Source: an uncultured Candidatus Saccharibacteria bacterium
Lineage (GTDB): Bacteria; Patescibacteriota; Minisyncoccia; Phycocordibacterales; UBA12445
Direction: 5' to 3'
DNA length: 64,000 nucleotides
Assembly: GCA_964649715.1 (NCBI GenBank)
Contig: CAZYTH010000005.1
Coordinates: 1,765 to 65,764, forward strand
In this document: piece after piece, positions 3,659-50,061 of the stretch
Numbering within the stretch: position 1 is the first letter of the stretch
Layout of the letters: each line of letters begins with the position of its first letter
Notes under the pieces: generated by a model
What the model saw: the letters and a program-made list of their open reading frames with translations, nothing else
The model's database searches: none
Told to the model about the DNA's origin: nothing
Made by a program: the position numbers and the translations under genes

Positions 3659-6600
3659 TTATTTATATTCTCTTAGCCAGAAATGTTCATCTTTTATTTT
3701 AATCAAAACTTTTGATGCCCCCTCTGGTCTTAAAAAAGAAAGTGATGAATTTGAACCACTCTGTTGTTTAACCAAAAAGAAACCAATTGCATCTCCTTTA
3801 GAAAAAAGCAAATCATTTATCTTTCCATCATTACGCATACTAAAAGATATTAAGGTATCTGATTTCTCCATGCCAGGGGTATATCTATGTATTTTTGGCA
3901 ATGATTCAAATGTGCCATCACCTTTATTTAAATAAATAATAAGATAACCACGATTACATAATAAGACAATGTCCTTTTTGCCATCATTATTATAATCAAT
4001 TGTAGCGGAACCCAAAATATCTAGAACTAAATCGTCTATATACCTCGTTCCATAATCTTTTCTTTCCTCAAATTCACCGTTGTTTTTTCCTAAGAAAATA
4101 CTAAAAACAGGAGATTGGTAGTCATAATAGACCCCGTTACTTAAACCAGCAGAATATGACGCTACAGCTAAATCAGAAATTCCATCATTGTTAAAATCGG
4201 CAATGATTGGTTTTCCTGGATAAGGTAGCGTGTAATATGTATTTTTCTTTTCTAATTCACCATCTTCATTTCCGAGCATTATTGCAATCGTACTTGTATT
4301 AAAATCAGAAGCAACAACATCACCAAATGTATCATTATTTATTTTGCCCGCTGTTAAGTATGCTTGTGCGACAGAATTGGTTGAGAATTGTTCGTCAAAA
4401 TTTGGATTTCCGTCATTTTTCAAACCGCCATTTTTCAAAACAGTAATTCCTGGAGTCCCCGCCACGATATCAATCTTTCCATCTCCATTTATATCAATAA
4501 TATCCAAATATTGGAAATAAGGAGAGTCTGTTCCAAAATAGATAGGCTGTTTAAATGTATTATCACCCTTGTTCATAACAACCGAAACATTTCTGTCATC
4601 ACCGACAGCAACTATATCAGCCTTTCCGTCACCGTCCAAATCCCCTATTTTTACTTTGCGTAGTCTCCATCCAACTGAAAATTCAGATACATTGTATTTA
4701 AAACCATCGATATTTTCAGTCCCATTTTGATTACTCAAAAAAACAGAAATTGAGGAAGCCTTCTTATTTGCTGTCACAAAATCAGGTATGCTGTCATTGT
4801 TGAAATCATAAATATCAATACCCCATGTTTCAACATCAGTACCATTGCTTCTAATTAATTGTTTAAGTTCTTTATAGTCTAAAGAGCTAGTCGTTTCGCT
4901 ATTTGCCTTAATCAAAGAGACACCATACATAACAACATTATTACCTTCTTTTTTTGTCATTCGAAGCGGAGATGTAAGGACACCCTTTGGATCAAAAGCT
5001 ATCTTTATTTCTTTATCATCATGCTTAACACGAAATCCGATATCAACAAAATCGACAAAAGGCAAACTACAATCTTTTGTTCCTGTCATTAGTTTTGTTT
5101 TTTCACAATTGCTCGTTTGGGTAAAAGTTTCTGTGGTGCATTTTGTTGCAGGATCAGGAGTCCATGTTGTATCAACACAATCCCCAACATTCACGGTCAC
5201 GCTCTTTGAATCACTTCCCCCGGGACCTTCACAAGACAGTGTGAAGGTTTTGCTTTCTCTTAAGCTTCCTGTGGACTGAGAAGAGTCAAGGGTTCCTAAT
5301 GTTCCAGGAGCTAAAGTACCCGACCAACCAGTACCACTTCTTGTACAAGATGTGGCGTTTTTGGCGGTGTATCTGATTGTTGTGGCTGTGTTGTAATCAA
5401 CAAAACCGTGACCAACCGTCAGAGTGACTTCTGGTGGTTTTATGCTTACAGTTTTTGAATCTTCTACTTTTGCACCATTTATTCCAATACATTCAACCTT
5501 GTATGTTTTTGAGGTGGTGAGGTTGCCAGTAGAGAAACTTGATAAACTTGTGTAGCTACTTGACCAATCCCCTGACCAATCCCCAAGTCTCCTACAAGAA
5601 ATAACGTTTGTTGTCGTGTATGTTAGTGTTGCTGGCGTATTATAATCAACGAGTTCTTTGTCGACTGTGAAGTTTAAAGTTGGTGAATCTAAAGGCAAAC
5701 TACAATCTTTTGTTCCACTAATACCTGTTCTAGTCGAACCACACTCTGTACCCGTTTGGGTGAAAGTTTCTGTAGTGCATCTTGTTGCAGGGTCAGGAGT
5801 CCATGTTGTATCAACACAAGCCCCGACATTCACGGTCACGCTCTTTGAATCACTTCCCCCGGGACCTTCACAAGACAGTGTGAAGGTTTTGCTTTCTCTT
5901 AAGCTTCCTGTGGACTGAGAAGAGTCAAGGGTTCCTAATGTTCCAGGAGCTAAAGTACCCGACCAACCAGTACCACTTCTTGTACAAGATGTGGCGTTTT
6001 TGGCGGTGTATCTGATTGTTGTGGCTGTGTTGTAATCAACAAAACCGTGACCAACCGTCAGAGTGACTTCTGGTGGTTTTATGCTTACAGTTTTTGAATC
6101 TTCTACTTTTGCACCATTTATTCCAATACATTCAACCTTGTATGTTTTTGAGGTAAAAAGATTACCAGTAGGGAAACCTGATGCACTTGTGTAACTACCT
6201 GACCAATCCCCAAGTCTCCTACAAGAAGTAACGTTTGTTGTCGTGTATGTTAATTTTGTTGATGTATTGTAATCGACTGAATCGTTCTCGACTATGAAAT
6301 TTAGAGTTGGGGCTCCTGGTTCTGCAACAGAAACAACTACCTCTTTTTCAACATCACTACCTCCTGGGCCAGAACAATTCAGTCTGTAGGTTTTGCTTTC
6401 TGTTAAGCTTCCTGTGTCCCAAGAAGAGCTAAGTGCCCCTGATGATGCATTAGGAGGTAACGAGCCACTCCAATCTCCGCTTTTTGTACAGGATGTTGCG
6501 TTTTTAGCTGTATATTTAAGATTGGTTTTTTCTCCATAATTAAGATTTTGTTTAGTAGCCTCTAATGTAACAACTGGAGGGTTTATACCTATTATTACGT

Positions 6601-10841: not shown

Positions 10842-10920
10842 GTTTAAAAGTTATAATTTTTAAACTTTCAAATTTAAAAACTTTATAACATTATAACTTT
10901 CAACTTTATAACCAAATATC

Positions 10921-12250
10921 ATGGATAAAATACTTTCTAAAATAAAAAATAAAATTCCGAAGAGCTTTCTTGAAAAAATTAGACCAGCTTATCATTACTC
11001 TCTAGCTCTACTGGGCAACACAATATACAACTCCCCCTCAAAAGAAATATTTGTGATCGGGATAACGGGAACAAAAGGAAAATCCACCACAGTTGAGATC
11101 TTGAGTGCGATATTAGAGGAAGCAGGTTACAAAACAGCGGTTGCTTCCACCGTCAGGTTCAAGATAGACAAAGACAGCAAGTCCAACCTCCTAAAAATGA
11201 CAATGCCTGGAAGATTTTTTATTCAAAAATTTTTAAGAGAAGCCGTTGTCGCTGGTTGTGAATACGCAATAATAGAAATGACCTCTGAGGGTGCGAAGAA
11301 CTTCAGACATAAATTTGTTGAACTTAATTCTCTGATATTTACAAATATATCACCCGAACACATTGAGTCTCACGGATCATATGAAAAATATCTTGGGGCA
11401 AAACTATCCATCGCCAAACAGCTAGAATCTTCTGGAAAACCAAGTCGCTCTATTATCGCAAACGGCGACGACGAGGAATCTGATAAATTCTTTAAAATAA
11501 ATGTTCCCAACAAAATAGCGTTTTCTCTTGCGGAAGCAAAACCATTTACCCTAGAAAAAGAATATTCTGATATAAACATCTTCGGAGAAAGAGTTATCAC
11601 AAAATTACCAGGAGAATTCAATGTGATGAACATACTTGCGGCATCCACCTTCGCAAGAAGCCAGGGAATATCGCCGACTATAATAAAAAATGCGATAGAA
11701 AAAATAAAAAATATTCCGGGAAGAGTTGAAAAAATTGAAATAAATTCTAAAGATAAAAGATGAAAGTGGCAAAGAAATTGGAATTGGAACATTTCCTGAT
11801 TTTAGCGTAATCGTTGATTATGCACACACGGCTGATTCATTAGAAAAACTTTATAAAGTTTTTAAGCGAGAAAAAAGAATCTGTGTCCTTGGGAGTTGTG
11901 GAGGAGGACGAGACAAATGGAAAAGACCTAAAATGGGATCCGTTGCAGAAAATTATTGTGATGAAATAATCTTAACCGACGAAGATCCTTACGACGAAGA
12001 TCCGGAGGAAATAATTAGAGAAGTTGCGAAAGGAATCAAAAACAAAAAACCAAAAATTATTTTAGATAGAAGAGAGGCAATCAGAGAAGCACTCTCATGT
12101 GCGAAAAAAGGTGATGTTGTTCTTATAACAGGTAAGGGAACCGATCCATGTATAATGAAAAAAAATGGAGAAAAAATTTCATGGAGCGACAAGGAAGTGA
12201 CAGAGGAAGAATTAGTTAAGCTGGCAATTGAGAGAACGGTGAACAAATAA
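10921..12250 (+). CDS. Mur ligase family protein (MurE-like UDP-N-acetylmuramoyl-tripeptide ligase), apparent frameshift near 11745-11765
   Basis: GITGTKGKSTT P-loop. Mur-ligase core ...FTNISPEHIESHGSYEKYLGAKLSIAKQ...IPGRVEKIEI. The conserved VIVDYAHTADSLEKL motif is only in the +1 frame (11765 onward), which continues into ORF 11933-12250 (C-terminal Mur ligase domain). The frame switch is at an A-rich tract aaagataaaagatgaaag. Confidence 0.65.
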
Positions 12251-12263
12251 ATTAAAAATTATC

Positions 12264-12280
12264 AATTACGAATTACGAAT
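12264..12280. repeat. Copy of dispersed AT-rich repeat caattacgaattacgaat
   Basis: Seen directly. Same motif at 43142-43160, 43510-43528 (inverted), 49474-49505, 49544-49555 (inverted), 49990-50023 and 58538-58556 (inverted, inside uvrD). Confidence 0.6.
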
Positions 12281-17752: not shown

Positions 17753-17755
17753 TTG

Positions 17756-17828
17756 TGCGCCCAGCAGGATTCGAACCTGCGACCATTTGCTTAAAAGGCA
17801 ACTGCTCTACCAACTGAGCTATGGGCGC
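17756..17828 (-). tRNA. tRNA-Lys (anticodon UUU)
   Basis: Reverse complement GCGCCCATAGCTCAGTTGGTAGAGCAGTTGCCTTTTAAGCAAATGGTCGCAGGTTCGAATCCTGCTGGGCGCA is near-identical in architecture to E. coli tRNA-Lys. Anticodon loop CTTTTAA. Confidence 0.85.
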
Positions 17829-17891: not shown

Positions 17892-17916
17892 ATGAGCGAG
17901 GTTGAACCTCACTCAT
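17892..17916. repeat. REP-like 25 bp imperfect palindrome atgagcgaggttgaacctcactcat overlapping the RAYT stop codon
   Basis: Seen directly. Related copies at 18395-18419 (reverse complement) and 18627-18651 (direct). Confidence 0.7.
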
Positions 17917-18622
17917 CATTTTGTTCCATAATTAAATCTATGTCTCCATCATTCTTATTGTCCCTAATCCAATCTTCCATTTCTTTTTTATACTTCGCTT
18001 CCCCGCCAAGATAACCACTCATCCATTCTCGCGATGTAACAGATGGAAAATTTTTTATTCCTATATAATCTAAATAGCTACTCCATCTATAGTGATTCAA
18101 TTGTTCTATTTTTTCGGATGGCAATCCCTTGGATTTCTTTATGGGGTTATTGTGTATATAAAAAGGCAACCAACCAAAATGAGCTTCTTTTTTTATGTGG
18201 ACCGCCTTAAATCTTCCCTGAAACAAACCCCCCACTCTCTCATATTTTTGATTAAAATACATAGTATATCCAGTCCCCAGTTTCTGCATAAATTTTACGA
18301 TTCCATTCTCTTGTCTTTGTTTCAAAACCAAATGAAAATGATTGGGCATCAATGTAAAAATAATAACATCAACCAACCTTTTTCTATTCTTCACAAATGA
18401 GTGAGGTTCAACCTCGCTCATTGATCTATTATGTTCAATGTCACGACCTAAATTCTGAACTGGGGAATTATTATTAAATTCATAAAGACAGTGAATAAAT
18501 CTAAGATGGTCCTGCTTATCTAAAAAGATGTTTCTTTTTTCTACACCCCTATTATAAATGTGATAGAATTCATCTTCTATAAATTCCGGTTTTTTCTTTG
18601 CCATAAACAAGAATACTATCAT
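17909..18622 (-). mobile_element. REP-associated tyrosine transposase (RAYT; IS200-like Y1 HUH transposase)
   Basis: EFYHIYNRGVEKRNIFLD N-terminal motif. HUH motif MPNHFHLVL. Catalytic Tyr region GYTMYFNQKYERVGGLFQGRFK. Bracketed by REP palindromes in the RAYT arrangement. Confidence 0.75.
18395..18419. repeat. REP-like palindrome copy inside the RAYT coding sequence (encodes MSEVEPHS in frame)
   Basis: Exact reverse complement of the 17892-17916 copy. Confidence 0.7.
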
Positions 18623-18730: not shown

Positions 18731-19198
18731 CTACTTCTTCTTCTTGCCGCCCTTACCCTTGTTCTTCTTGTTCTTGCCCCCATCGGAGGAGCCGCCCTTC
18801 CCTTTCTTCTGCTTCGGGGGCTTCACCTTGGGATGCCAAGTGCCGTTGGCCTTCCCCGCTTCGATGCCGGCCCAACGAGCCGGCTTGGCCTTGGACTTTT
18901 TCTTCGACCCAACGCGGGAACGATTCAGGATTGACGGTCGATACTCCTCCTGAATCAAACCCTTGATGTAGGCCGAGTGGATTCGACGAACCTGAAAAGC
19001 CTCCCTTTCCTCGGCGTCGAAAATCGCGCCGTTCTGGACTTCGATGATGTTGCCGAGCGTGAAGTCCTTGTTGACGGTCTGAACCTTCCAGTCTCCTTCA
19101 TTGTCGGGAAGATTGGAGAGATTCTCGAGAATAATCCCGAGACCCTCAAACACCGAGAGGAAAAACTTGATTACCTCACCGACACGGAAGTTCACCAT
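18731..19198 (-). CDS. Hypothetical protein (155 aa) with GC3-rich codon usage and a Lys/Gly-rich C-terminal tail (KKKSKAKPA...KGKGGKKKK)
   Basis: Coherent ORF in a GC-rich segment. Consensus sigma70 promoter and AAAAGGAGGG ribosome-binding site upstream. Basic tail suggests nucleic-acid binding. No family recognised. Confidence 0.55.
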   Translation of the reverse strand: MVNFRVGEVIKFFLSVFEGLGIILENLSNLPDNEGDWKVQTVNKDFTLGNIIEVQNGAIFDAEEREAFQVRRIHSAYIKGLIQEEYRPSILNRSRVGSKKKSKAKPARWAGIEAGKANGTWHPKVKPPKQKKGKGGSSDGGKNKKNKGKGGKKKK

Positions 19199-19245
19199 AA
19201 AAATAGCCCTCCTTTTAAAATTTTGATGTTCTTAATTCTCTTTTA

Positions 19246-19274
19246 ATTATATACCTTTATTATGAATCTGTCAA
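19246..19274 (-). promoter_or_regulatory. Consensus sigma70 promoter TTGACA-17-TATAAT for the 155 aa gene
   Basis: Minus strand reads ggtggtgTTGACAgattcataataaaggtaTATAATtaaaag, about 45 nt upstream of ribosome-binding site AAAAGGAGGG and the ATG at 19198. Confidence 0.6.
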
Positions 19275-19435
19275 CACCACCAAATAAAATTGTCTAAAAT
19301 ACAGATAATCAACGACTATCATCCCTTTTGTCATTCCCGACTTGATCGGGAATCCAGAAATTGTCTTTGAAACTGGATCCCCGTTTTCACGGGGATGACA
19401 ACTAAAACCGAGTCGCACTAAGAAAAAACATGCAA

Positions 19436-19492
19436 CCCTGATTGGATAAAAATATATTCATCTAAAATGAATATATTTTTATCCAATCAGGG
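19436..19492 (-). terminator. 26 bp perfect inverted repeat with 5 nt loop, followed on the minus strand by ttgcatgtttttt
   Basis: ccctgattggataaaaatatattcat-ctaaa-atgaatatatttttatccaatcaggg. Unusually long stem. Could also be a protein-binding palindrome. Confidence 0.5.
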
Positions 19493-19502
19493 TAAAGAAA
19501 AA

Positions 19503-19529
19503 GGCGCTGAAGCTTGAGAGCTTAGCGCC
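19503..19529 (-). terminator. Rho-independent terminator (ggcgctaagctc-tcaa-gcttcagcgcc plus TTTTTCTTT) after the 292 aa gene
   Basis: Hairpin plus T-run on the minus strand, 50 nt after the stop at 19581. A smaller hairpin ggagatg-gac-atctcc (19540-19560) precedes it. Confidence 0.55.
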
Positions 19530-19580
19530 TGAAATGGACATTTTGTTGATGGAGATGTCCATCTCCGATTCTGCACTAGG

Positions 19581-20459
19581 TTACTTCTTGTTGGTCGGGC
19601 GGAGTTTGGATAGAAGGTTGGCAACCACCGGAACCTTCTCGATCTGTGCCCTGAATCCCTCATCCATCCACTTGAAGTGAGCGAACAGGAATCCGCCGTT
19701 ACCGTTCTGATTCTTGCGCCGTTCCAAGATCGGAACATCGCGCTCGAGACCGAGCTCCACCTTGCCTTCAACGAGCTGAAGAGTCCGGACCTTGGCCCAG
19801 ATCTCCCCATCGAAGCCTGACTTGGTGGAGATTACCGCACAGGGGCCCGCCGACCCGTGGATGTGGAGTTCTCCCCGAATGACACGAGGCCAGTCGAAGA
19901 TTTCCTTTCCGTCGGCGAGTTTCTTCTTCTTGGTGAAGCCACGGGAACCCCATTGCCAGCGAGCCTCGGAGATGGGCAGGGTGATCAGGATCTCGGAGAT
20001 CCGCTTGGCCAACTTCAGCTTAAGCTGGTCAGCGACGGCCTTGGGCAGGATCCGGAATTCGCTACGGGAAAGACTGACCGGAACGCCCTCGGAGGTCTCG
20101 GCCTCCATCTGACCATCGGCCTTGACCGAGATCAAGACCAGGTGACCGCACTTGACCGCAGCACCGACATAGCCGGACCGCGGATCGATGGGGGGCAGCT
20201 CCTTCAGAGTGCCGTCTTCCATCTTCTTCTGGCGGCGGATGTTGGCCATGCCGTAGAGACCGTTGAGCTCGAACTGCTCGATCGGGCGAAGGGAGGTCTT
20301 CTGGACCGCCTCCATGACCTGGTCGGTGCCGGCGATCTGAAGATCGACGAGATCTTCGGTTTCCTTGAGGATGAACATGGGCTTGGCGGATGGATCGTCC
20401 TTGAAGGCGACCCATTCCAACACGAACCGTGGTCTGCTGTTCTGATTCTTGTTCTCCAT
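19581..20459 (-). CDS. Hypothetical protein (292 aa) with GC3-rich codon usage
   Basis: Long ORF with protein-like composition. Opposite-strand ORFs are Asp/Gly/Leu-rich antisense artefacts. Ribosome-binding site AAAGGAGGG lies 8 nt before the ATG. No family recognised. Confidence 0.55.
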   Translation of the reverse strand: MENKNQNSRPRFVLEWVAFKDDPSAKPMFILKETEDLVDLQIAGTDQVMEAVQKTSLRPIEQFELNGLYGMANIRRQKKMEDGTLKELPPIDPRSGYVGAAVKCGHLVLISVKADGQMEAETSEGVPVSLSRSEFRILPKAVADQLKLKLAKRISEILITLPISEARWQWGSRGFTKKKKLADGKEIFDWPRVIRGELHIHGSAGPCAVISTKSGFDGEIWAKVRTLQLVEGKVELGLERDVPILERRKNQNGNGGFLFAHFKWMDEGFRAQIEKVPVVANLLSKLRPTNKK

Positions 20460-20763
20460 AACAATTGCCCTCCTTTGGGCTTCGAAATTCAGAATGTACC
20501 CTTTCGCTAAACTACCTCTTCCTCCAAAGAAGATTTGATTAAGCGAAGGACACGCGCACGGCCGGGTGAAATTCCACGGCCAATTTTTAGAACAGTTTCC
20601 CTTCCTCCTTTTTCATTTAACATAGAATTGACATCGCTTTCCTTGTGACGGAATTTCTCCCGCCCAAGATGGCAGTGCCGAGTCCGGATGTTGTTGTTGA
20701 CTTAATCCACCTCCTTCTTTTTGAAATAACCTTTATTGCAATGAACAAACTTGATTTTGGTTT

Positions 20764-21666: not shown

Positions 21667-21745
21667 GTTTATAATGTTATCAAGTTATCAAGTTCATAAA
21701 GTTGTCGAGTTCACCGAAGGCGAAACTTTATAACATTATAACTTT

Positions 21746-24887: not shown

Positions 24888-26585
24888 ATGAGTGATTTTG
24901 ACGACATACAAGGACAAAAGAAATTAGAGGATATAAAAATTCGGGAAGCCGAAGAGTTGGCTCAAATTCTATCAGGAAGATATAGCATCCCTTATGTTGA
25001 CCTAAGCTCTATCTCAATAAACACTGATGCTCTCAGAATAATAGAAGAACCCATTGCCAGAGACTCAAAAATAGCTGGATTTCAAATGACCGGCAAAAAG
25101 ATAAGTCTAGCTGTACTATCCCCCGCAAATCCAAAAGTTGATACTGTTTTAAACAATGTTCGAGAAAGAGGTTTTGAACCCGTGCTTTTTATAAGCTCAG
25201 AAAAAAGCCTTGAAAGAGCGTGGGAAAGATATAGCGAGATATCAAAAGCGGCTGAAACAAAAGCTGGACTTATTGATGTCTCAAAAGAATTGCTTACCGA
25301 AATACTTGAAAAAACAAAAGGGGTTGAGGACATAAAGAAACAAATAGAAGAACTAACTAAAGACAATAAAACCCAAGGAGTATCTAGAATACTTGAAATC
25401 ATCATTGCTGGTGCTCTCGCAACAAAAGCCTCAGATATTCACATGGAACCCCAAGAAGAATCAGTGAGATTAAGATATCGACTGGACGGTATTCTTCATG
25501 ATATAGATTTTTTCAGTCATCATGTATATAAACTTATCGTTTCAAGAATAAAATTAATTTCTGCACTCAAGCTTAATGTTAAAAAAAGCTCTCAAGATGG
25601 AAGGTTTACGATAGGAACACAAAACAAAGACATTGAAGTAAGAACATCCGTTCTTCCCGGGGTCTATGGCGAGACCATTGTTATGAGACTTCTTGATCCA
25701 GACTCTATATCAATAGATCTTGAAATGATGGGAATTGAAGAAAAACTTCTTCGAATATTCAACGACGAAATAAAAAAACCAAACGGTCTTATTCTAACAA
25801 CAGGACCAACCGGTTCCGGAAAAACCACGACTCTTTATGCTTTTTTAAGAAAGGTCAATGATCCAGGTAATAAAATAATCACAATCGAAGATCCTGTGGA
25901 ATATCACATGAAAGGAGTTTCTCAGACTCAAGTCAGTGAAGATGGCGGATACACTTTCCTTGAAGGTCTTCGAGCGGCTCTTCGTCAAGATCCCGATATC
26001 ATTATGGTAGGAGAAATAAGGGACTCAGAAACGGCAAAAATCGCCATAAACTCAGCTTTAACAGGACATCTGGTATTCTCTACCCTTCACACAAATGACG
26101 CAGCTGGAGCGATTCCAAGACTAGTGGACCTTGGAATAAATTCAAAAATCATTGGCTCGGCCCTTACTCTTGCAATAGCACAAAGACTTGTAAGAAAACT
26201 TTGCGCTAACTGTAAAAAAGCAGTTCCACCAAATCCCGAAGAAAGTAAAATAATCAACATTGTATCCAAATTGATAAAAGAAAAAAGACCAGAGATTGAA
26301 GTTCCAGAAGGGAAAGAAATATGGGTCGCAGGAGATGGATGTGAAATATGCAATGGGGTCGGATATAAGGGCAGGACTGGTGTCTTTGAGGCAATAATGG
26401 TTGATCCTGATGTCACAAGAGTTATTACAGATAAAGTTAACGACAGAGAAATTAAAGATGCTTCAAAAAAACAGGGAATCTTGGATATGAGGGAACACGG
26501 AATACTAAAAGTATTGCAAGGAATAACATCAATAGAAGAATTAGAAAGAGTCGTCCAGTTAAAGTTAGCAGAAGAAAGTTATTAG
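24888..26585 (+). CDS. pilB: Type IV pilus / type II secretion ATPase (PilB/GspE family)
   Basis: Walker A LILTTGPTGSGKTTTLYAF. Motif GEIRDSETAKIAINSALTGHLVFSTLHTNDAAGAIPRL. C-terminal CxxC...CxxC zinc motif. Confidence 0.85.
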   Translation: MSDFDDIQGQKKLEDIKIREAEELAQILSGRYSIPYVDLSSISINTDALRIIEEPIARDSKIAGFQMTGKKISLAVLSPANPKVDTVLNNVRERGFEPVLFISSEKSLERAWERYSEISKAAETKAGLIDVSKELLTEILEKTKGVEDIKKQIEELTKDNKTQGVSRILEIIIAGALATKASDIHMEPQEESVRLRYRLDGILHDIDFFSHHVYKLIVSRIKLISALKLNVKKSSQDGRFTIGTQNKDIEVRTSVLPGVYGETIVMRLLDPDSISIDLEMMGIEEKLLRIFNDEIKKPNGLILTTGPTGSGKTTTLYAFLRKVNDPGNKIITIEDPVEYHMKGVSQTQVSEDGGYTFLEGLRAALRQDPDIIMVGEIRDSETAKIAINSALTGHLVFSTLHTNDAAGAIPRLVDLGINSKIIGSALTLAIAQRLVRKLCANCKKAVPPNPEESKIINIVSKLIKEKRPEIEVPEGKEIWVAGDGCEICNGVGYKGRTGVFEAIMVDPDVTRVITDKVNDREIKDASKKQGILDMREHGILKVLQGITSIEELERVVQLKLAEESY

Positions 26586-26932
26586 TTTTTTTACAAAATT
26601 AATAAAACCCGCCGAGTGGCAGGTTTTATTACACAGAATTTATAGAGAATTTGATTCTCTAAGCAATTCTTTTAATATAGAATTAAAAGTTAGATAATTT
26701 TTGAAGGATGGTCTCAGTAATTTCACTCAAAAGGTGAGTACCAAGGCGTCCTCCTCAAAAAATCATTTAAACCTGGAGGTTTTATTGCTTAGAGAATCAA
26801 GGTCTCTATTTGTAAAATATCAAAATTTTGCAAATTACAGGAATTACAGGCAAGATATGTTAATAACAGATAAAAGTATTTTTGTAAACCTTTATCCAAC
26901 CTGTTCGGGAATCCTATCATAATAAAATAAAA

Positions 26933-27994
26933 ATGTCAAGTAAATCATCAAAATCTGGCCCAAATAAAGATTATTTTGATGGAGAAGAAAAAGATAAAGT
27001 TGTGTCCTCTGATTTTAAAAATGAGGTCTTTTTAGACAGCACCCTAAGACCTGAAAAATGGGATGAATACATAGGACAAAACCCTATAAAAGAAAATCTA
27101 AAAATACTTCTCGATGCTGCAAAAGCCAGAAAACACCCTCCCGAGCACCTACTCTTCTATGGTCCTCCTGGTCTTGGAAAAACAACCTTGGCTCACCTAA
27201 TCTCAAAAGAAAACAATTCTCAACTAAAAATAACGTCAGGACCTGCAATAGAAAAAGTAGGAGACCTGGCCTCCTTGCTTACAAATCTTTCTGCAGGAGA
27301 CATACTATTTGTCGACGAGATACACAGATTAAATAAAATGATAGAAGAAGTTCTTTATCCTGCAATGGAATCTGGGGTTTTGAATATAATAATTGGTAAG
27401 GGTCCTTCTGCCAGAACAATACAACTTGAGCTACCTCCTTTCACACTGGTGGCTGCCACAACAAAAATAGCGCTACTGTCCTCCCCTCTACGATCACGAT
27501 TCTCTGGAGGAACTTTTAGACTTGAATTCTACACCAACGAAGAAGTAGAGAAGATAATCACAAGATCTGCTAATATCCTTGAGGTAGAAATAGAAAAAGA
27601 AGCTACCGAGGAGATAGCAAAAAGAAGCAGGTTTACGCCACGCATAGCGAATCATTTGCTTAAGAGGTGTCGTGATTTTGCACAAGTCAAAGGAACTATT
27701 TTGAATAAAAATACCGTAAAAGAAGCACTTTCTCTTTTGGGAATCGATCATGCGGGATTGAATACAACCGATAAAAAAATACTTGAAACGATTATAAATA
27801 AATTTGCAGGTGGCCCCGTTGGGCTTAGTACTATTGGAGCAGCCATATCCGAAGAAACTGATACAATAGAAGAAGTTAATGAACCATATCTTATACAATT
27901 GGGATTTATCGAAAGAACACCAAGAGGTCGTTCCGCGACAAGAAAAGCATACGAACACATAGGAGCTGATTTCCCCAAAAATAAACTGTTTTAA
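26933..27994 (+). CDS. ruvB: Holliday junction branch-migration helicase RuvB
   Basis: LLFYGPPGLGKTTLAHLIS Walker A. DEIHRL Walker B. RuvB C-terminal winged-helix region. Confidence 0.9.
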   Translation: MSSKSSKSGPNKDYFDGEEKDKVVSSDFKNEVFLDSTLRPEKWDEYIGQNPIKENLKILLDAAKARKHPPEHLLFYGPPGLGKTTLAHLISKENNSQLKITSGPAIEKVGDLASLLTNLSAGDILFVDEIHRLNKMIEEVLYPAMESGVLNIIIGKGPSARTIQLELPPFTLVAATTKIALLSSPLRSRFSGGTFRLEFYTNEEVEKIITRSANILEVEIEKEATEEIAKRSRFTPRIANHLLKRCRDFAQVKGTILNKNTVKEALSLLGIDHAGLNTTDKKILETIINKFAGGPVGLSTIGAAISEETDTIEEVNEPYLIQLGFIERTPRGRSATRKAYEHIGADFPKNKLF

Positions 27995-28229
27995 ACAATT
28001 TATTCGATTTATGATTTATGAAAAATCCCTCACGATTATTCGCAAGGGATAATTTTCCGCTCGTGGCGGAAAAGAATTAAAGAAAAAAGGTAAAAGGATT
28101 AGTAGGAAACTGCTTGCCCTCTCACCAACCTCTCCACTGAGAGTTTTTAGTGAATGCGGGAAGCCGTAGGCGAGTTCGGATACCTAACTCGGCCAATCAT
28201 GAACTCTAATCGAGATTGGTGACTGGGGA

Positions 28230-29021
28230 TTAGGAAACTACTGCACGAGCCCGCAAGCGCGAGAACGAATCGCTGGTGCGGCACCAATCCACGTAGAACT
28301 TGCCAGCGCTCCAGCCCGCGCCCGGGACGCTGCCATCGGAATAGCGGGAGCCGCTACAGAGGGTAGTGCTGTTGATGTCCAAGTGGTGTTTGGTAAGCCG
28401 GAAGTAGAAGAGCTCGAGAAGACGGCGCTCGAGGAGGGTCATGGTCTGGATCTTTTGTTTCTCGATATCGAGAGCCGAAAGATTCTTGAGATCTTTGGGC
28501 ACTTCGATGGAGTCTTTGATCCAGATGGCATAGGACTTCGTGATGTTTCTCTCTTCCTTGCCCTGGTCCATGTCCTTGTCGAGATCGTCGCCGTACTTCC
28601 AGGTGGACATACCGAGCTTCTTCTCGCCGTCAGAGATCATTTTGTGTGTCAGTGACTTGGTGATGAACATCAGGAAGTCGAAACCTTGTTTGTAGTCCGG
28701 GATATCCTCCCTTTCTTTCAGGTCCAAGCCGAGAACTTCCTTATAGAATTTCTTCCAGATCCACTGGAATTCGTCAGGAACATTGACCATCTGTCCACCA
28801 AGGATGGCAGACATCTTGGGTGTGAAAGTGGCCAGCACTTTCTTGCCGAGAATCGCCTCTCGAAGTCGGGCAATCCTTTCGGGTTGTTTCATACCAATGA
28901 AGGCTTGCAGTTCTTCGGGTGTGACCTCATTGTAGACAACCGAGAGAGCTTTTAGAACTGCGCAGTCAACTTCTCGCGCGAGTCCTCCTTGCTTTTGGAC
29001 ATTCCCGTTTTGCTTGGGCAT
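28230..29021 (-). CDS. Unknown-family protein P1 (263 aa), paralog of the two downstream genes, with foreign GC3-rich codon usage
   Basis: Shares W.KFY.K.LG.D, acidic cluster ... K.YAIW(I/V)(K/R)D, TLLE and TLC.GS.Y motifs with ORFs 29315-30142 and 30139-31035. The coding sequence is about 55% GC while its flanks are AT-rich. Confidence 0.6.
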   Translation of the reverse strand: MPKQNGNVQKQGGLAREVDCAVLKALSVVYNEVTPEELQAFIGMKQPERIARLREAILGKKVLATFTPKMSAILGGQMVNVPDEFQWIWKKFYKEVLGLDLKEREDIPDYKQGFDFLMFITKSLTHKMISDGEKKLGMSTWKYGDDLDKDMDQGKEERNITKSYAIWIKDSIEVPKDLKNLSALDIEKQKIQTMTLLERRLLELFYFRLTKHHLDINSTTLCSGSRYSDGSVPGAGWSAGKFYVDWCRTSDSFSRLRARAVVS

Positions 29022-29096
29022 TTCCTTTCTCCTTTTTAAAAGAACTTACTTGGGTCTCGCCAAGTCAATCGCGAAAAACACTTTCGCTTTATCGGA

Positions 29097-29125
29097 AGAT
29101 TACAGTAGATTGGTCGGTCTGTCAA
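29097..29125 (-). promoter_or_regulatory. Sigma70-like promoter TTGACA-17-TAATCT for P1
   Basis: Minus strand reads aaggTTGACAgaccgaccaatctactgTAATCTtccg, about 75 nt upstream of the ATG at 29021. Confidence 0.5.
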
Positions 29126-29146
29126 CCTTTGTCCTCCACTCATACT

Positions 29147-29162
29147 TAATGTAGTATAGAAA
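29147..29162. promoter_or_regulatory. Candidate operator: palindrome tacta-atg-tagta within shared 16-mer taatgtagtatagaaa upstream of P1
   Basis: Identical 16-mer at 31124-31139 upstream of the P3-P2 operon. 5 bp inverted repeat with 3 nt spacer. Confidence 0.45.
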
Positions 29163-29276
29163 AGTAGTCGTTAGTTTTTAGTTGATAGTTTTTAGAAAAA
29201 CAGACAATTTTTTACTGTCGCAATACCACTGAGGTTTTTTAAAATACGCACATTCATAAATATAGGTTTAATATAG

Positions 29277-29302
29277 AAAACCCCGCAATTAATGCGGGGT
29301 TT
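29277..29302 (-). terminator. Terminator hairpin aaaccccgc-aattaat-gcggggttt after the P3-P2 operon
   Basis: Perfect 9 bp stem. T-rich tract follows on the minus strand. Confidence 0.6.
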
Positions 29303-29314
29303 CAGACCTAAAAA

Positions 29315-30142
29315 TCACTTAGAAACAACTTCTCGTATCCTAAGACGGTGATCTTTTGTGTCTAGTTTAAAAGGATGAATAACAAGTAGATTAGTTCTTG
29401 TGAGCATCATTGGACAAAATTCTTGATAACTCACAGTAGGAACAAATTCTCTCTTTGTCTCTTTGTCGTAGTAAACACTACCAACACAAAAAGTTTGTGA
29501 ATCAACATCTAAATGTTCCCCTGTTTCTTCAAAATACTTAAGATGGAAAATAAGTCTTTCCAAAAGATTGATGCTGTTTATTCCAAGACTCAGCGACATT
29601 TCAGGGCTTAGTTGACGATGTGCACTATCAGACCATTCACAATCCCTAACCCAAATTGCATAAGCTGATGTTGGTTTTCTTACACTAACGCAATCAATAT
29701 CAACTTCAGCAGGAATTCTATTTTCATAACTAAACAGGCTGATATTTTTAAACAACCCAACATTGTTTCCTCTAAAAACTCGAAAAACATGTTCAAGAAT
29801 TAAATCCTTTGGAATGATAATAAGCCTATCAAATCCCTTTCTTAGTTCAGGTATGTTCTCTTTTAAAAAAACAAGATCAATTCCAAAATATTTCCTATAA
29901 AACCTTTTCCAATCTTCAATCAAAATTTCTATTTCATCGAGTATTTTTGTTCCGACGCAACAAGTAATGAGAAATTCTCTAAAACTTTTACGAAAAGACT
30001 CCGGGTTATTTCTTGCTCTTGTTAAAACTTTTTCAATAATATCCTCTTCTTTTGGTAGAGATTTCAATATTGTGATATCAAAATCTCTAAAATTTTTGAT
30101 ACACTTAGACACAAAGGCACCAATATTTTCACTTACCTTCAT
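29315..30142 (-). CDS. Unknown-family protein P2 (275 aa), tandem paralog
   Basis: Motifs EDWKRFYRKYFGIDL, VDIDCVSVRKPTSAYAIWVRD, NLLERLIF, TFCVGSVYYD. Its start overlaps the P3 stop by 4 bp (operon). Confidence 0.6.
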   Translation of the reverse strand: MKVSENIGAFVSKCIKNFRDFDITILKSLPKEEDIIEKVLTRARNNPESFRKSFREFLITCCVGTKILDEIEILIEDWKRFYRKYFGIDLVFLKENIPELRKGFDRLIIIPKDLILEHVFRVFRGNNVGLFKNISLFSYENRIPAEVDIDCVSVRKPTSAYAIWVRDCEWSDSAHRQLSPEMSLSLGINSINLLERLIFHLKYFEETGEHLDVDSQTFCVGSVYYDKETKREFVPTVSYQEFCPMMLTRTNLLVIHPFKLDTKDHRLRIREVVSK

Positions 30143-31035
30143 TTGTCAATCTCCTTAAATTCAATTACAGAGCGTGCTCGTATCTTTATTTGATATGCCT
30201 CATCAAGAGAAATAATTATACTTTGATTAGACTCGTCAAACTGTTTGTATTGAACTCCTTTTATAGTGAGACGGGTTCCATTCATATATACGATAGGAAC
30301 AAAAACATTCCACAAAGGAATATTTGAAACATTTTCTATATCCTTCTTGTAAACGGTACCCAAACACAATGTGGCTCCATTGCAATCAAGAATATTTTTT
30401 TTATTCTCGTCTAAACATTTCGCAAACAAAACAAAGTATTCCAAAAGAGTTATTCCATTTATTCCTATCCGACTTAGCAAATCTGGATAACCCTGAAGAC
30501 TGTTTTCTGCATCTAACTCATCTTTAACCCAAACAGCATAACCTTTTTGCTTGGAATTTCTAACATTTTCTGTGATTTCATCAAAATCATCTGTCTTTGT
30601 ACTCATACTCCACCTAAAACAAGGGATAAACTCCACCAAAAAAGAATACATTCTTTCTGTTGTCATCCCCTTGGGAATCATCAGAAGCCTACTGTAGCCA
30701 GGATTTTTTTTTGGAATAAGAATATCGGAAAGAAATTCTGGTCTTATACCAAAATATTTTTGATAAAACATCTTCCAATCCAATACGATATACTCTATGT
30801 CACGTTCCGTAAAAGGAATAAAGGTTTTTTGGATAATAGAAATTATTTCTATTATCCTAGAAACTTCACCTGGAGAAATCTTTTGATTACAATTTATCTC
30901 TTTCTTCAAAACAATCAAGGATTCCTTTATTATTAGTAAGGTGGTGTCTGAAACCTGAATTTTCTCGTTCATTTGTACATCCTTATTTTCAAGGTTCTTT
31001 TTTATAACAAAAGCAAAAATAAGACTTTTAAGCAA
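30139..31035 (-). CDS. Unknown-family protein P3 (298 aa), tandem paralog
   Basis: Motifs LDWKMFYQKYFGIRP, DDFDEITENVRNSKQKGYAVWVKDE, TLLEYFVLF, TLCLGTVYKKD. Confidence 0.6.
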   Translation of the reverse strand: MLKSLIFAFVIKKNLENKDVQMNEKIQVSDTTLLIIKESLIVLKKEINCNQKISPGEVSRIIEIISIIQKTFIPFTERDIEYIVLDWKMFYQKYFGIRPEFLSDILIPKKNPGYSRLLMIPKGMTTERMYSFLVEFIPCFRWSMSTKTDDFDEITENVRNSKQKGYAVWVKDELDAENSLQGYPDLLSRIGINGITLLEYFVLFAKCLDENKKNILDCNGATLCLGTVYKKDIENVSNIPLWNVFVPIVYMNGTRLTIKGVQYKQFDESNQSIIISLDEAYQIKIRARSVIEFKEIDK

Positions 31036-31123
31036 GGGAAAAGAATAATATCTAAATTATCGGTAATTAAAAGTTAATGTATATAAAATTAAATAATTTA
31101 ATACTTGATTAGCCTTACCGTAC

Positions 31124-31139
31124 TAATGTAGTATAGAAA
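31124..31139. promoter_or_regulatory. Second copy of the operator-like 16-mer taatgtagtatagaaa, between divergent P3 and yebC
   Basis: Identical to 29147-29162. Lies about 90 nt upstream of the P3 start. Confidence 0.45.
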
Positions 31140-31169
31140 GACAGTCAAATTAAAAGCTTAAAAAATTTT

Positions 31170-31709
31170 ATGAGTGGTCATAACAAATTTTCAAAAATAA
31201 AACACAAAAAAGGTGCAGAAGATGCAAAAAAAAGCAAAGCTTTCGCAATGATGTCCAAGAAGATAACAGTTGAGTCTCGTATTGCTAAGGGCGATAAAAA
31301 CTCTCCAGGTCTTAGAAAGGTGATCGAGAATGCACGCAAAATTAACATGCCGAACGACAAAATTGATACTGCCATAGCCAAGGGAATTGGCGCAGGTGGA
31401 GCAGAAATGCAAAATGTAATGTATGAAGCCTATGGGCCAGGAGGATCTGCTATAATAATTACGGGCATAACCGACAACAAAAACAGAATGACTCCAGAAA
31501 TTAAGCACTTACTTTCTGCAAACGGGGGAACATTGGGAGGAGAAGGATCGGTTATCTGGGCATTTCAAAAGAAAGAAGATGAGTGGGAATCAACGATGCC
31601 ATTAGAATTACCCGAGAAAGACAGAGGGTCCTTAATTAATTTGTTAGAAATAATTGACGAACACGAAGACGTAGAAAGTATATATACAAACATCTCCAAT
31701 TTAGAATAA
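31170..31709 (+). CDS. yebC: YebC/PmpR-family probable transcriptional regulator (short form, 179 aa)
   Basis: MSGHNKFSKIKHKKGAEDAKKSKAF ... MYEAYGPGGSAIIITGITDNKNRMTPEIKHLLSANGGTLGGEGSV matches the YebC N-terminal and middle domains. Gene order yebC-ruvC as in many bacteria. Confidence 0.75.
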   Translation: MSGHNKFSKIKHKKGAEDAKKSKAFAMMSKKITVESRIAKGDKNSPGLRKVIENARKINMPNDKIDTAIAKGIGAGGAEMQNVMYEAYGPGGSAIIITGITDNKNRMTPEIKHLLSANGGTLGGEGSVIWAFQKKEDEWESTMPLELPEKDRGSLINLLEIIDEHEDVESIYTNISNLE

Positions 31710-31820: not shown

Positions 31821-32309
31821 ATGAAAATTATTGGTGTTGATCCTGGCTATGATAAATTTGGAGTGGCTATTATAGAAAAAAAAACGGGAAAAGAATTTCT
31901 TATTTATTCTAATTGTATAAGAACATCACCCAAACTACCTTTAAACGACCGTATCTATGAAATAGGAAAACAATTTAACGAACTAATCAAAAAATATAGC
32001 CCGGATGTACTTGCAATAGAAAAGCTATTTTTCACTACCAATCAAAAAACAGCCATGGGAGTATCAGAAGCCAAGGGTGTTGCTACTTATATAGCGAAAA
32101 ACAACGGTTTAGAAGTCTTTGAGTTCACTCCCCTTCAAATAAAAATCGCAGTAGTCGGATATGGAAAAGCGGAAAAGAACCAAGTTTCAAAAATGATCCC
32201 ATTTCTAATAAAAAATTGGACTGATATAAACAAAAAGAAAATTGAGGATGATGAATATGATGCGATAGCAGTCGCACTTACGTGTTCGGCAACAAACAGA
32301 CAAACTTGA
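31821..32309 (+). CDS. ruvC: Crossover junction endodeoxyribonuclease RuvC
   Basis: MKIIGVDPGYDKFGVAIIE N-terminal catalytic Asp motif. 162 aa. Located after yebC. Confidence 0.8.
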   Translation: MKIIGVDPGYDKFGVAIIEKKTGKEFLIYSNCIRTSPKLPLNDRIYEIGKQFNELIKKYSPDVLAIEKLFFTTNQKTAMGVSEAKGVATYIAKNNGLEVFEFTPLQIKIAVVGYGKAEKNQVSKMIPFLIKNWTDINKKKIEDDEYDAIAVALTCSATNRQT

Positions 32310-43130: not shown

Positions 43131-43141
43131 ATTAGAAATTG

Positions 43142-43160
43142 CCAATTACGAATTACGAAT
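43142..43160. repeat. Left arm of perfect 19 bp inverted repeat ccaattacgaattacgaat flanking the four-helix-bundle gene
   Basis: Reverse complement is found at 43510-43528. Confidence 0.75.
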
Positions 43161-43518
43161 GAAGGAAAATATTATTCAAAAGAAGAGTTACGATTTTGCA
43201 TTAAAAATAGTCGGTATATATCAAAATTTAGTAAAAAACAACAAAGAATTTGTTCTTTCGAAGCAATTACTGAGAAGCGGAACCTCAATCGGTGCTAATA
43301 TTGAAGAGGCAATCGGAGCTCAATCTAGAAAAGATTTTTATTCAAAGCTCAGTATAGCCTATAAAGAAGCAAGGGAAACCAAATATTGGGTAAGAATACT
43401 TTGTGATAGCGACATGTTGTCTACCAATGAGGCTGGTTTGTTGTTGAATGATCTCGAAGAGATACTAAAAATCATAGGAAAAATTCAAAAAACCGTTAAA
43501 GATGGTTTTAATTCGTAA
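43159..43518 (+). CDS. Four-helix-bundle protein (23S rRNA intervening-sequence protein / DGR Avd-like family)
   Basis: 119 aa. KKSYDFALKIVGIY ... SGTSIGANIEEA ... KDFYSKLSIAYKEARETKYWV matches the TIGR02436-type four-helix-bundle family. Confidence 0.7.
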   Translation: MKENIIQKKSYDFALKIVGIYQNLVKNNKEFVLSKQLLRSGTSIGANIEEAIGAQSRKDFYSKLSIAYKEARETKYWVRILCDSDMLSTNEAGLLLNDLEEILKIIGKIQKTVKDGFNS

Positions 43519-43528
43519 TTCGTAATTG
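43510..43528. repeat. Right arm (attcgtaattcgtaattgg) of the 19 bp inverted repeat
   Basis: Perfect reverse complement of 43142-43160. Confidence 0.75.
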
Positions 43529-43540
43529 GTAATTTCTAAT

Positions 43541-44830
43541 TTATTTCAGCTTCACGACCCAAGCAGTGCCGTCTTTTTTGTTTATGAATGCAAAAAAGTC
43601 TTCGTTTTCGCTTAAAATTGGTTCTATAATATCTATCTCTACTCCCCCTAGCTTCTCTTTGTCTATAATTATCCTAGCGGTAGCACTGCTGGTGTCTATT
43701 TGCCAAATTGTATCTGAGAAAGATGAGATTCCCTGATACCATGATTCGGGATATTTTGAACCTAATACTACATTAGGAACTCCACAATAAATTATATTTT
43801 CATCACCTTTACTAAAGACGCATTTTTCAGGAAGAGTTTTTAAAGGGAAAGAATTGGTTGCACCATCCACTTGATTAAAAAAGTATGTCATAAAACCTGT
43901 CCCTACGGTTTCGGAATAGATAACGTTATTATTTTTTGGGCTTATTTTTGTAGTAAGGCCAGAAATATCCCCGATAACCTTTTGGAAATTATTTGTTCCG
44001 TTCACAGATAAAGAATAAAGTTGCCCTAAGGCAGAAGAAGAAGGTTTTGTCGCCAAGGAAATTATTTTGTCTGATTCCCAAGACACACTCCACTCTTTAA
44101 GAGGAGAACTCCATATTTGAGTTTTCGGACTAGAAAGTGGGTCTGAATTAAATTCTCCTATAGTACCAACCACAGAGCCTCCATTGTTTATTAAGTAAAA
44201 TACTTTGTCTTTGTCTGGAGAAACAGCGAAACCAAGTGTATTTGAAGGAAGAATGGTTCCGTTTAGTTTGCCTACACCTGACTCAACAGTTACCTCTGTT
44301 TCAGAAGATGGTTCTATTGTGCCATATATCGTTTGAAGGATGTTGTTTATTCCCTCAAGTCTTCTTAATATTAAATTCTGGCCGTTTTTCCCCCACGAAG
44401 TATCTACTATCCCCGTGATAGTTGTGTTTGTTATTTTTGTTGGAATATTTTCACTAAAAGACATATCTTTTATGTGTCCTGTTCCTTTCTCTATAAAACG
44501 AAGCGAAGGCTCTCCTTCGTTTTTGTTCACAAAAGTTATTCCTGCCACAGAGACACTTGTCATTTTTTTAATACTGCCAGGAATTCTTGTTTCATAGTCG
44601 TCTATTGTTTGATCGTTCTGATTTATAAAATCTGAACTTTCATTTTTTGTTGTATTTCCGTTTATTTTTCCGCTACTTGGAAAATAGTTCGTGTCTTCAT
44701 TTGTCGGCGGTTGAGGTTCTCCTGAAGAAGGAAATTGTTCCCCTCTTTGAAGATACCAAACAGTCCCTCCTACAGAGGCAACTATTAAAAGAGAAATTAT
44801 TACCACAAAGATAGTTGTCCTTTTGTTCAT
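43541..44830 (-). CDS. Membrane-anchored extracytoplasmic hypothetical protein
   Basis: Likely start MNKRTTIFVVIISLLIVASVGG (one TM), then a Ser/Thr/Gly/Asn-rich beta-rich domain. The upstream His/Gln-rich extension in the ORF track is probably non-coding. Confidence 0.45.
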   Translation of the reverse strand: MNKRTTIFVVIISLLIVASVGGTVWYLQRGEQFPSSGEPQPPTNEDTNYFPSSGKINGNTTKNESSDFINQNDQTIDDYETRIPGSIKKMTSVSVAGITFVNKNEGEPSLRFIEKGTGHIKDMSFSENIPTKITNTTITGIVDTSWGKNGQNLILRRLEGINNILQTIYGTIEPSSETEVTVESGVGKLNGTILPSNTLGFAVSPDKDKVFYLINNGGSVVGTIGEFNSDPLSSPKTQIWSSPLKEWSVSWESDKIISLATKPSSSALGQLYSLSVNGTNNFQKVIGDISGLTTKISPKNNNVIYSETVGTGFMTYFFNQVDGATNSFPLKTLPEKCVFSKGDENIIYCGVPNVVLGSKYPESWYQGISSFSDTIWQIDTSSATARIIIDKEKLGGVEIDIIEPILSENEDFFAFINKKDGTAWVVKLK

Positions 44831-44849
44831 CTTTTTAAATTTTAATTTA

Positions 44850-45305
44850 TTAAAAAGCACCAGTACTCCCTCCACCTGCAGGTGCTCCTGGTGTTGGTTG
44901 TGGATTTGATGTTCCTGGTGTTGTGGCTGTTTCACAATTAGCATCTGACGCACTTAAATCCATCTTAACCAAATTAGGATTTACTGTATTTAAGATAAGA
45001 TAGCCTGTAAGAGCTATAACAAGCCCTATTATTGCGTTGGTGATTCTTTCTTTTGCCTTGCCTTTATTACTATCACTTGCCCACGATGTAGTGTACTCAA
45101 CTCCTCCTATGACTATCATTAGTATTGCAGACAAAACAGCAAAGCCAAGAGCATACCAATAGATAGCTTGTATGTATTTACCTGGGTTTGTGACTGTCTC
45201 CCCTGTAAACCCTTTTATCGGTTCCAGAAGCTTATATGATGATTGAGCAAGAGAAAAAGATGTCGGTATTGTCATTAGGATTGAAAATAAAAAAAGTTTT
45301 GTCAT
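44850..45305 (-). CDS. Putative type IV secretion pilin-like protein (VirB2/TrbC-like topology)
   Basis: 151 aa. Signal peptide plus two hydrophobic helices (YWYALGFAVLSAILMIVIGG and AIIGLVIALTGYLILN). Gly/Pro-rich tail. Located in the type IV secretion-like cluster. Confidence 0.4.
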   Translation of the reverse strand: MTKLFLFSILMTIPTSFSLAQSSYKLLEPIKGFTGETVTNPGKYIQAIYWYALGFAVLSAILMIVIGGVEYTTSWASDSNKGKAKERITNAIIGLVIALTGYLILNTVNPNLVKMDLSASDANCETATTPGTSNPQPTPGAPAGGGSTGAF

Positions 45306-49473: not shown

Positions 49474-49555
49474 AATTACGAATTTTTAATTACTAATTAC
49501 GAATTAAACTTTTTCTTTTCTTTATTTTATCATCAATCATTATTAATTCGTAATT
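49474..49555. repeat. Cluster of aattacgaat-family repeats (two direct, one inverted) in the spacer between the VirB4 N-domain ORF and the PrgI-like gene
   Basis: caattacgaat 49474-49484, ctaattacgaatt 49493-49505, aattcgtaatta 49544-49555. Confidence 0.6.
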
Positions 49556-49989: not shown

Positions 49990-50061
49990 CAATTATGAAT
50001 TAATAATTACGAATTACGAATTTTCTTGTACCATTGCTTTATATTTCCTGCCTGCCGGCAG
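49990..50061. repeat. Spacer containing both repeat families: aattatgaattaataattacgaattacgaat (49990-50023) and cctgcctgccggcag (50047-50061)
   Basis: Seen directly. Confidence 0.6.

Follow-up and report, generated by a model that had tools for sequence, protein, structure and literature searches.

A 16-nt direct repeat upstream of yebC-ruvC in a Candidatus Saccharibacteria genome: a probable promoter core duplicated around an inserted gene pair

Genes and repeats between ruvB and yebC

The window, by which the whole 64-kb stretch of DNA analysed here is meant, contains a gap of 3175 nt (27995-31169) between ruvB and yebC, and within this gap three paralogous genes, P1, P2 and P3, are encoded on the minus strand (Table 1). 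The three paralogs are 26-31% identical to each other and have no Pfam match; exact look-ups found neither the P1 nor the YebC of the window on record. In composition P1 is GC-rich, locally up to 67%, whereas P2 and P3 are AT-rich. The compositional boundary between P1 and P3, to which the preliminary description of this DNA had drawn attention, is real and can be attributed to two causes, namely that P1 is foreign cargo and that the native -35 box upstream of yebC is itself GC-rich.

The sequence TAATGTAGTATAGAAA is found twice in this region as an exact 16-mer, both times on the plus strand and with 1977 bp between the two positions, in agreement with what had first been reported. As direct repeats the two copies bracket the block of P2 and P3, and not P1. 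Copy 1 is located 125 nt from the ATG of P1 (29021) and copy 2 is located 148 nt from the ATG of P3 (30975), in place of the 90-125 bp upstream of the paralog starts originally given. The gene yebC is indeed transcribed divergently from the P3-P2 pair next to copy 2, with its ATG 30 nt downstream of that copy.

Table 1. Positions, strands and characteristics of the features discussed, numbered from the first nucleotide of the 64-kb window
Feature	Position	Strand	Remarks
1598-aa ORF	3659-8455	-	internal repeats
23-mer AAACTTTATAACATTATAACTTT	10878-10900; 21723-21745		identical copies in intergenic spacers
Palindrome AAAAACTTTATAAAGTTTTT	11844-11861		related to the 23-mer
AATTACG heptad clusters	12257-12280; 43137-43160; 43511-43541 (-); 49474-49555; 49991-50021; 58532-58562 (-)		
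tRNA-Lys	17755-17828		
IS200-like Y1 transposase	17892-18622		ORF 17909-18622 (-)
Inverted repeats of the Y1 transposase locus	17892-17915; 18397-18420		24 nt each
GC-rich patch	19000-20500		just left of holA
Near-perfect palindrome, ~55 nt	19435-19490		within the GC-rich patch
292-aa ORF	19581-20459	-	within the GC-rich patch; no Pfam match
168-nt element	26642-26809	+	between a pilB-like gene and ruvB
ruvB	26933-27994	+	Pfam RuvB_N, AAA_lid_4, RuvB_C; left border of the variable gap
P1	28230-29021	-	C-type-lectin-fold DGR variable protein; 50% GC; variable region approximately the last 132 nt (28230-28361)
Conserved -35 box CTGTCAACCTTTGTCC	29119-29134	+	16/16 identical to L218; hexamer TTGTCC at 29129-29134
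16-mer copy 1	29147-29162	+	TAGTAT at 29152-29157, TG before it; predicted start region AGAAA
Block between the repeats, 1961 bp	29163-31123	-	spacer, terminator, P2, P3 and P3 upstream region; presumed insertion
G+C-rich hairpin CCCCGC-aattaat-GCGGGG	29281-29299	both	A/T runs on both sides; from the sequence and the predicted fold of 29164-29312
P2	29315-30142	-	AT-rich paralog of P1; no sign of diversification found
P3	30139-30975	-	AT-rich paralog, first gene of the P3-P2 pair; 4-nt overlap with P2
TTGATT, -35-like hexamer	31105-31110	+	18 nt 5' of the copy-2 TAGTAT; not homologous to the conserved -35 box
16-mer copy 2	31124-31139	+	TAGTAT at 31129-31134
yebC (TACO1/YebC family)	31170-31709	+	Pfam PF20772, PF01709
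ruvC	31821-32309	+	Pfam PF02075; downstream of yebC
11-nt partial 16-mer TAATGTAGTAT	43765-43775	-	within the coding region of ORF 43541-44953

Without gaps the likeness of the two copies reaches 20 of 23 nt, and c(a/g)tac matches 5' of both copies once an indel of 1 nt is allowed; beyond these stretches the flanks are unalignable. If the extended likeness of 29 nt is taken as one duplicated patch, it contains 5 differences, all situated outside the central 16 nt, as is expected if promoter function keeps both cores. A search of the window that allowed up to 2 mismatches gave no third copy (0.07 matches are expected for the 16-mer pattern at this tolerance). The 16-mer is not of low complexity and its sub-k-mers are not repeated within the window. 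The 11-nt partial copy listed in Table 1 is probably due to chance.

The significance of the repeat depends on the question asked. With the two upstream spacers taken as given, a shared stretch of 16 nt was reached in none of 1000 shuffles (mean 8.8, maximum 14), whereas 17-25% of random 64-kb sequences with the same composition have some identical stretch of 16 nt or more repeated in direct orientation within 2.5 kb, and the window itself holds other, evidently chance, 15-19-mers, for example TATATCGTTTGAAGGA. Independent support was therefore required for the repeat and was obtained from comparative data. In a genome collection of 596 Gb the bare 16-mer gave at least 119 matches, in unrelated phyla and at about chance frequency; its 23-nt form TAATGTAGTATAGAAANNNAGTC gave no match in the metagenome and viral collections, and the 16-mer is absent from all the relatives' loci that were compared. 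The motif is private to the locus. The 16-mer was also seen on three contigs of the Melainabacteria MAG CAKVDZ01 (L020, L034 and L075, i.e. contigs 18, 19 and 10, respectively), which suggests a repeated element in that genome with no apparent link to the window.

Further features of the window were recorded outside the gap. The 168-nt element located upstream of ruvB is nearly identical in four genomes, the other three being represented by L122 (6200-6365), L130 (4297-4463) and L134 (3979-4144), and the adjoining spacers are unalignable; its fold has a closing stem of 24 bp and three inner hairpins, with four compensatory pairs. Searching the region 26560-31200 against Rfam (gathering threshold; E <= 1) yielded nothing relevant and no family at threshold for the element, which is a candidate structured non-coding RNA. 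The heptad repeat AATTACG(AATTACG)AAT has 17 matches in the window at <=3 mismatches against 0.5 expected. Most of its clusters lie between ORFs and one (58532-58562) is found within the ORF 57841-59862; the motif is also present after the ruvB stop codon in L134 (about 5283-5307). The IS200-like Y1 transposase gene is situated beside a tRNA-Lys, with the second of its two inverted repeats inside the ORF. The GC-rich patch to the left of holA, with 48% GC compared with about 34% in the window as a whole, may be a further acquired island. The two copies of the 23-mer, 10.8 kb apart, could be a real shared regulatory site. Finally, the 1598-aa ORF has internal repeats ~630-640 nt apart with further copies at about 1290 and 1929 nt, a stretch of 329 nt being identical between repeat copies, and it probably encodes a large repetitive surface protein.

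The P paralogs as DGR variable proteins

The P paralogs are C-type-lectin-fold DGR variable proteins, and P1 carries an adenine-depleted variable region. The model of P1 matches FGE, TvpA, Mtd and TaqVP, and P1 has in common with DGR variable proteins the C-type-lectin/FGE-like fold with the variable region at the C-terminus. The scan for loci with homologs of P1 (L138-L217) was based on a sub-alignment of the family, the full alignment being too diverse. In metagenome loci with P1 homologs the last ~40 codons of the gene are present as a second copy 200-300 nt downstream, and this downstream copy has Asn codons where the gene varies. The likeness to known DGR systems extends to VR/TR pairs whose mismatches are adenine-specific and to an RT beside them. 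In L142 all 24 mismatches between VR and TR fall at TR adenines and a reverse transcriptase is found next to the TR, and over nine P1-homolog loci 239 of the 333 mismatches are at TR adenines, the rest being in the flanks. In P1 itself the last 132 nt are depleted of adenine (0.11-0.14 versus about 0.30), which partly accounts for the GC peak at the 3' end of the gene.

The surroundings of P1 differ from those of its homologs in that the 64-kb window contains no TR matching the P1 variable region, no RT and no Avd, and P1 is thus a remote or orphan DGR target. No diversification signature was found in P2 and P3. The occurrence of DGRs in Patescibacteria, in which they are common (PMC8144416), was already known; the P1 family adds new members to the DGR variable proteins that, having no Pfam match, had been left unannotated before. 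No link is evident between this finding and the 16-mer, whose position is 5' of the P genes.

The yebC promoter and the ruvB-yebC gap in related genomes

The empty site is seen in the closest relative (L122-L129), in which eight contigs with a YebC 92% identical to that of the window have ruvB, a spacer of 253 bp and yebC, with no P genes. Homology between the window and this relative is interrupted from the stop codon of ruvB to the ATG of yebC; with L218 and L130, too, it stops at the ruvB stop codon. When the relatives' spacers were compared with the window by BLAST, the coding ends aligned and nothing else. The gap measures only 32 nt in L222 and 140 nt in L134; it is occupied by a gene for a 752-aa helicase in L130 and by two unrelated genes in L218, and in L220, a contig without ruvB, it contains a sigma-factor-like fragment. 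Its size thus varies from 32 nt to the 3175 nt of the window, with cargo that differs by lineage. Because different cargo is found at the same place in the relatives, this lineage has a cargo hot spot between ruvB and the yebC promoter, P1 being one cargo and the P3-P2 block another. Most cargo genes in the gap were observed to lie on the minus strand.

The P3-P2 pair is not confined to this position. In L137 a P3-like gene (50% identity) and, directly after it, a P2-like gene (54%) stand among unrelated neighbours; the pair is a portable module. A genome intermediate between the two states, with P1, the promoter and yebC but without P3-P2, was not found among the relatives.

A bacterial promoter of the sigma-70 type has the -35 hexamer TTGACA, a 17-nt spacer and the -10 hexamer TATAAT. 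Read on the plus strand, the 16-mer is predicted to be made up of the -10 hexamer TAGTAT, the TG preceding it and the first transcribed bases of a promoter of this type belonging to yebC-ruvC. Homology with L218 starts at 29119, ~28 nt to the left of the 16-mer, and the order CTGTCAACCTTTGTCC, 17 nt, TAGTAT that is found upstream of yebC in L218 is present with the same box and spacing at copy 1. A related box is found upstream of yebC in L220 and L122, where the sequence is TCGTCAAT(a/c)TTTATCC...GTGTA(c/a)TAT. A promoter profile was built solely from the yebC promoters of L218, L220 and L122, i.e. of three related Patescibacteria genomes, and the whole window was scanned with it on both strands. 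One significant match was obtained, at 29120-29162 (17.3 bits, E = 3.3e-4), which is copy 1 with its upstream box; a second, non-significant match corresponds to the partial copy at 43765-43775 (-). At copy 2 the profile recognized the -10 part only (31120-31138, E = 11). Copy 1 is orthologous to the yebC promoters of the related genomes and, together with the conserved -35 box, represents the putative ancestral yebC promoter, directed along the plus strand and away from P1. Copy 2 appears to be a duplicate of the -10 core only.

Both copies have a TTG-type -35 element 16-18 nt from a TAnnnT -10 element, in the form TTGTCC, 17-nt spacer, TAGTAT at copy 1 and TTGATT, 18-nt spacer, TAGTAT at copy 2, and in the -10 hexamers T at -12, A at -11 and T at -7 are all present. 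They differ from the textbook arrangement in that the TG abuts the hexamer at both copies instead of standing one base away, and in that each promoter, whose activity is a prediction, has 8 of the 12 consensus positions, which is below the 9/12 threshold of the promoter scan, so that neither was called. Conservation at the orthologous position in related genomes is seen for copy 1 only, the architecture being kept in three relatives. Copy 2 is the one that is rightly placed in front of yebC and oriented toward it, and copy 1 now faces only a terminator. Copy 2 is most likely the promoter that drives yebC-ruvC today. The G+C-rich hairpin at 29281-29299 is predicted from its fold to be a two-way terminator, serving P2 as well as any transcript begun at copy 1. 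The idea that the 16-mer might be a general promoter word was rejected, given that its sub-k-mers do not recur in the window and that the -35 box is not enriched there (6 matches versus 8 expected).

In reverse complement the conserved box upstream of yebC reads TTGAC(A/G), with TTGACA in the window, and it may serve as a divergent -35 element for the resident cargo, including P1.

Origin of the repeat and its meaning

The 16-mer is probably the core of the yebC-ruvC promoter, duplicated at the insertion of P3-P2 and for that reason bracketing the block, a reading that we hold with moderate confidence. According to it, the ancestral yebC promoter would have consisted of copy 1 and the -35 box at 29119-29134, and the P3-P2 block of 2 kb would have been inserted once, just downstream of the promoter core and between the promoter and yebC. 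About 16 nt would have been duplicated during the insertion, either when a staggered cut was repaired or when a circular intermediate integrated by a single crossover via a short shared sequence. A second core would thereby have come to lie where the block ends on the right, 30 nt in front of the yebC ATG. This second core would pair with a new TTG situated 18 nt upstream, a -35 element that would have to come by chance from the inserted DNA, and would drive yebC-ruvC, and the old promoter would fire into the block and be stopped at the two-way terminator. An insertion just downstream of the core would explain at once the direct repeats, the empty site in the relatives, the modular block and the presence of a -10 element still in front of yebC. 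We infer that copy 2 functions as an active promoter and that the insertion event itself gave rise to the duplication.

The arrangement resembles a target-site duplication or a Campbell-type integration, in that a discrete block, missing in the closest, syntenic relative and occurring as a module elsewhere, is enclosed by identical direct repeats, as at the junctions of mobile elements. Of the two possibilities raised for the shared site in the preliminary description, a duplication or recombination boundary and the binding site of a common regulator, the former is supported by this arrangement and the latter is not. The resemblance is incomplete. The 1961-bp block holds only P2 and P3; it encodes no transposase, recombinase or integrase and lacks terminal inverted repeats. 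Duplications made by transposases are usually shorter than 16 nt, and no reuse of the site was seen in the metagenome and viral collections. The exact left junction was not placed by comparison of untranslated regions, in which the DNA following copy 1 and copy 2 showed no significant likeness to the relatives' 5' UTRs. An apparent likeness of the DNA following copy 1 to the relatives' post-ruvB or 5' UTR sequence, noticed by eye, proved not to be significant (z = -0.7 to 0.6), relative-versus-relative controls also being weak, and was dropped.

A variant of the insertion reading, which we regard as improbable, takes the conserved box and the -10 core as a resident two-way promoter serving as a landing pad, beside which minus-strand cargo, DGR target genes among it, is captured, and through the 16-nt core of which P3-P2 integrated and could excise. 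If this were true, the presence of P3-P2 would be reversible within the population. Recombination through the 16-mer would then give the deletion junction ...CTCCACTCATACT-TAATGTAGTATAGAAA-GACAGTCAAATT... and the circle junction ...CCTTACCGTAC-TAATGTAGTATAGAAA-AGTAGTCGTTAG....

Equally doubtful is the possibility that the 16-mer is the attachment-site core of a recombinase encoded elsewhere, at which cassettes, including DGR-target genes, integrate serially with the core being regenerated each time. The direct repeats around a discrete block, the cargo hot spot formed by the gap in the relatives and the occurrence of the P3-P2 pair as a module elsewhere would all be accommodated. Serial integration is, on the other hand, hard to reconcile with the left end of the P1 island, at which there is no third copy; a degenerate one was sought near 28100 and discarded, with only a weak TAGTA..GAAA matching. 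Furthermore, no integrase is encoded in or beside the block, the metagenome and viral collections contain no further occurrence of the motif, the relatives' cargo is not flanked by the 16-mer, and the module in L137 lacks such repeats.

Coincidence, i.e. two AT-rich spacers sharing 16 nt by chance with one of the shared stretches lying inside a promoter, is also unlikely. The frequency of comparable repeats in random 64-kb sequences, the unrelated 15-19-mers of the window and the unalignable flanks are compatible with it. Chance does not, however, readily account for the outcome of the spacer shuffles, in which the longest shared stretch was 14 nt, or for copy 2 being exactly where yebC needs a promoter, 30 nt before its ATG and with a TTG at 18 nt, and the 16-mer is not a low-complexity sequence.

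The idea of a shared operator, through which one regulator would co-regulate P1 and P3-P2 from about -75 to -90 relative to their promoters, has little probability in our view. The 16-mer has the same orientation to both units and is 33 nt (P1) and 40 nt (P3) from a candidate minus-strand -35 element, its 16/16 identity is non-random for these two spacers, and a short dyad is present at copy 2. Yet copy 1 is accounted for by orthology with the yebC promoter of genomes that have no P genes, and a perfect identity of 16 nt exceeds what an operator usually needs. Nor does the motif accompany the gene family: there is no match within 4 mismatches near the closest homolog of P1 (L120) or the homologous P3-P2 pair (L137), the motif is absent from the P0002 and P0157 loci, and the best matches upstream of 73 further P-family genes equal those of shuffled sequence, with no enrichment. 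Comparison of the P1 and P0002 upstream regions gave z = 1.4 and revealed no shared upstream element, and both P1 and P3 have promoter-like sites of their own, located between each gene and the motif.

The palindrome TACTA-ATG-TAGTA, formerly ascribed to the repeat as such, is found at copy 2 (31121-31133) but not at copy 1, where the sequence is TACTT-AATG-TAGTA, and three bases of the palindrome are not part of the 16-mer. The dyad arms are therefore 1 nt further apart at copy 1 than at copy 2, and part of the left arm falls outside the repeat. LexA boxes upstream of ruv genes are palindromic operators of a dimeric repressor, and the 5+5 dyad at copy 2, which likewise stands beside recombination-repair genes, is similar to such operators. 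It differs from them in that the dyad spacing is not kept between the copies and no dyad is kept in the relatives' promoters, and the 16-mer has neither a CTG-N10-CAG nor a GAAC-N4-GTTC pattern. The sole nearby candidate for a DNA-binding regulator of the 16-mer is YebC, which had been put forward for this role; a regulator might also be encoded elsewhere. According to current work, proteins of the YebC family associate with the ribosome and act as translation factors, relieving stalls at proline-rich stretches (PMC12234827, PMC11990639), and YebC is thus a weak candidate.

The minus strand of the 16-mer does contain TATACT at both copies, as noted at the outset, which matches TATAAT in 5 of 6 positions and faces both units, but that this is the -10 element of promoters for P1 and P3-P2 with long leaders was rejected as very improbable, for at neither copy is there a -35-like hexamer at 16-18 nt or a TGn extension, the leaders would be ~120-145 nt long, better-placed sites are found nearer each gene (TTGACA-17-TAATCT for P1, TATACA-16-GATAAT for P3), and conservation in the relatives follows the architecture of the plus-strand promoter.

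On the insertion reading favoured here, the 16-mer is an ordinary insertion scar and not an operator shared by the paralogs. The value of the result is mainly corrective, in that an apparent shared operator becomes a promoter core duplicated at an insertion junction, and none of the results presented opens a long-standing question. For the organism it would mean that a bacterium with a small genome can keep the housekeeping operon yebC-ruvC expressed after foreign genes have split the operon from its promoter.
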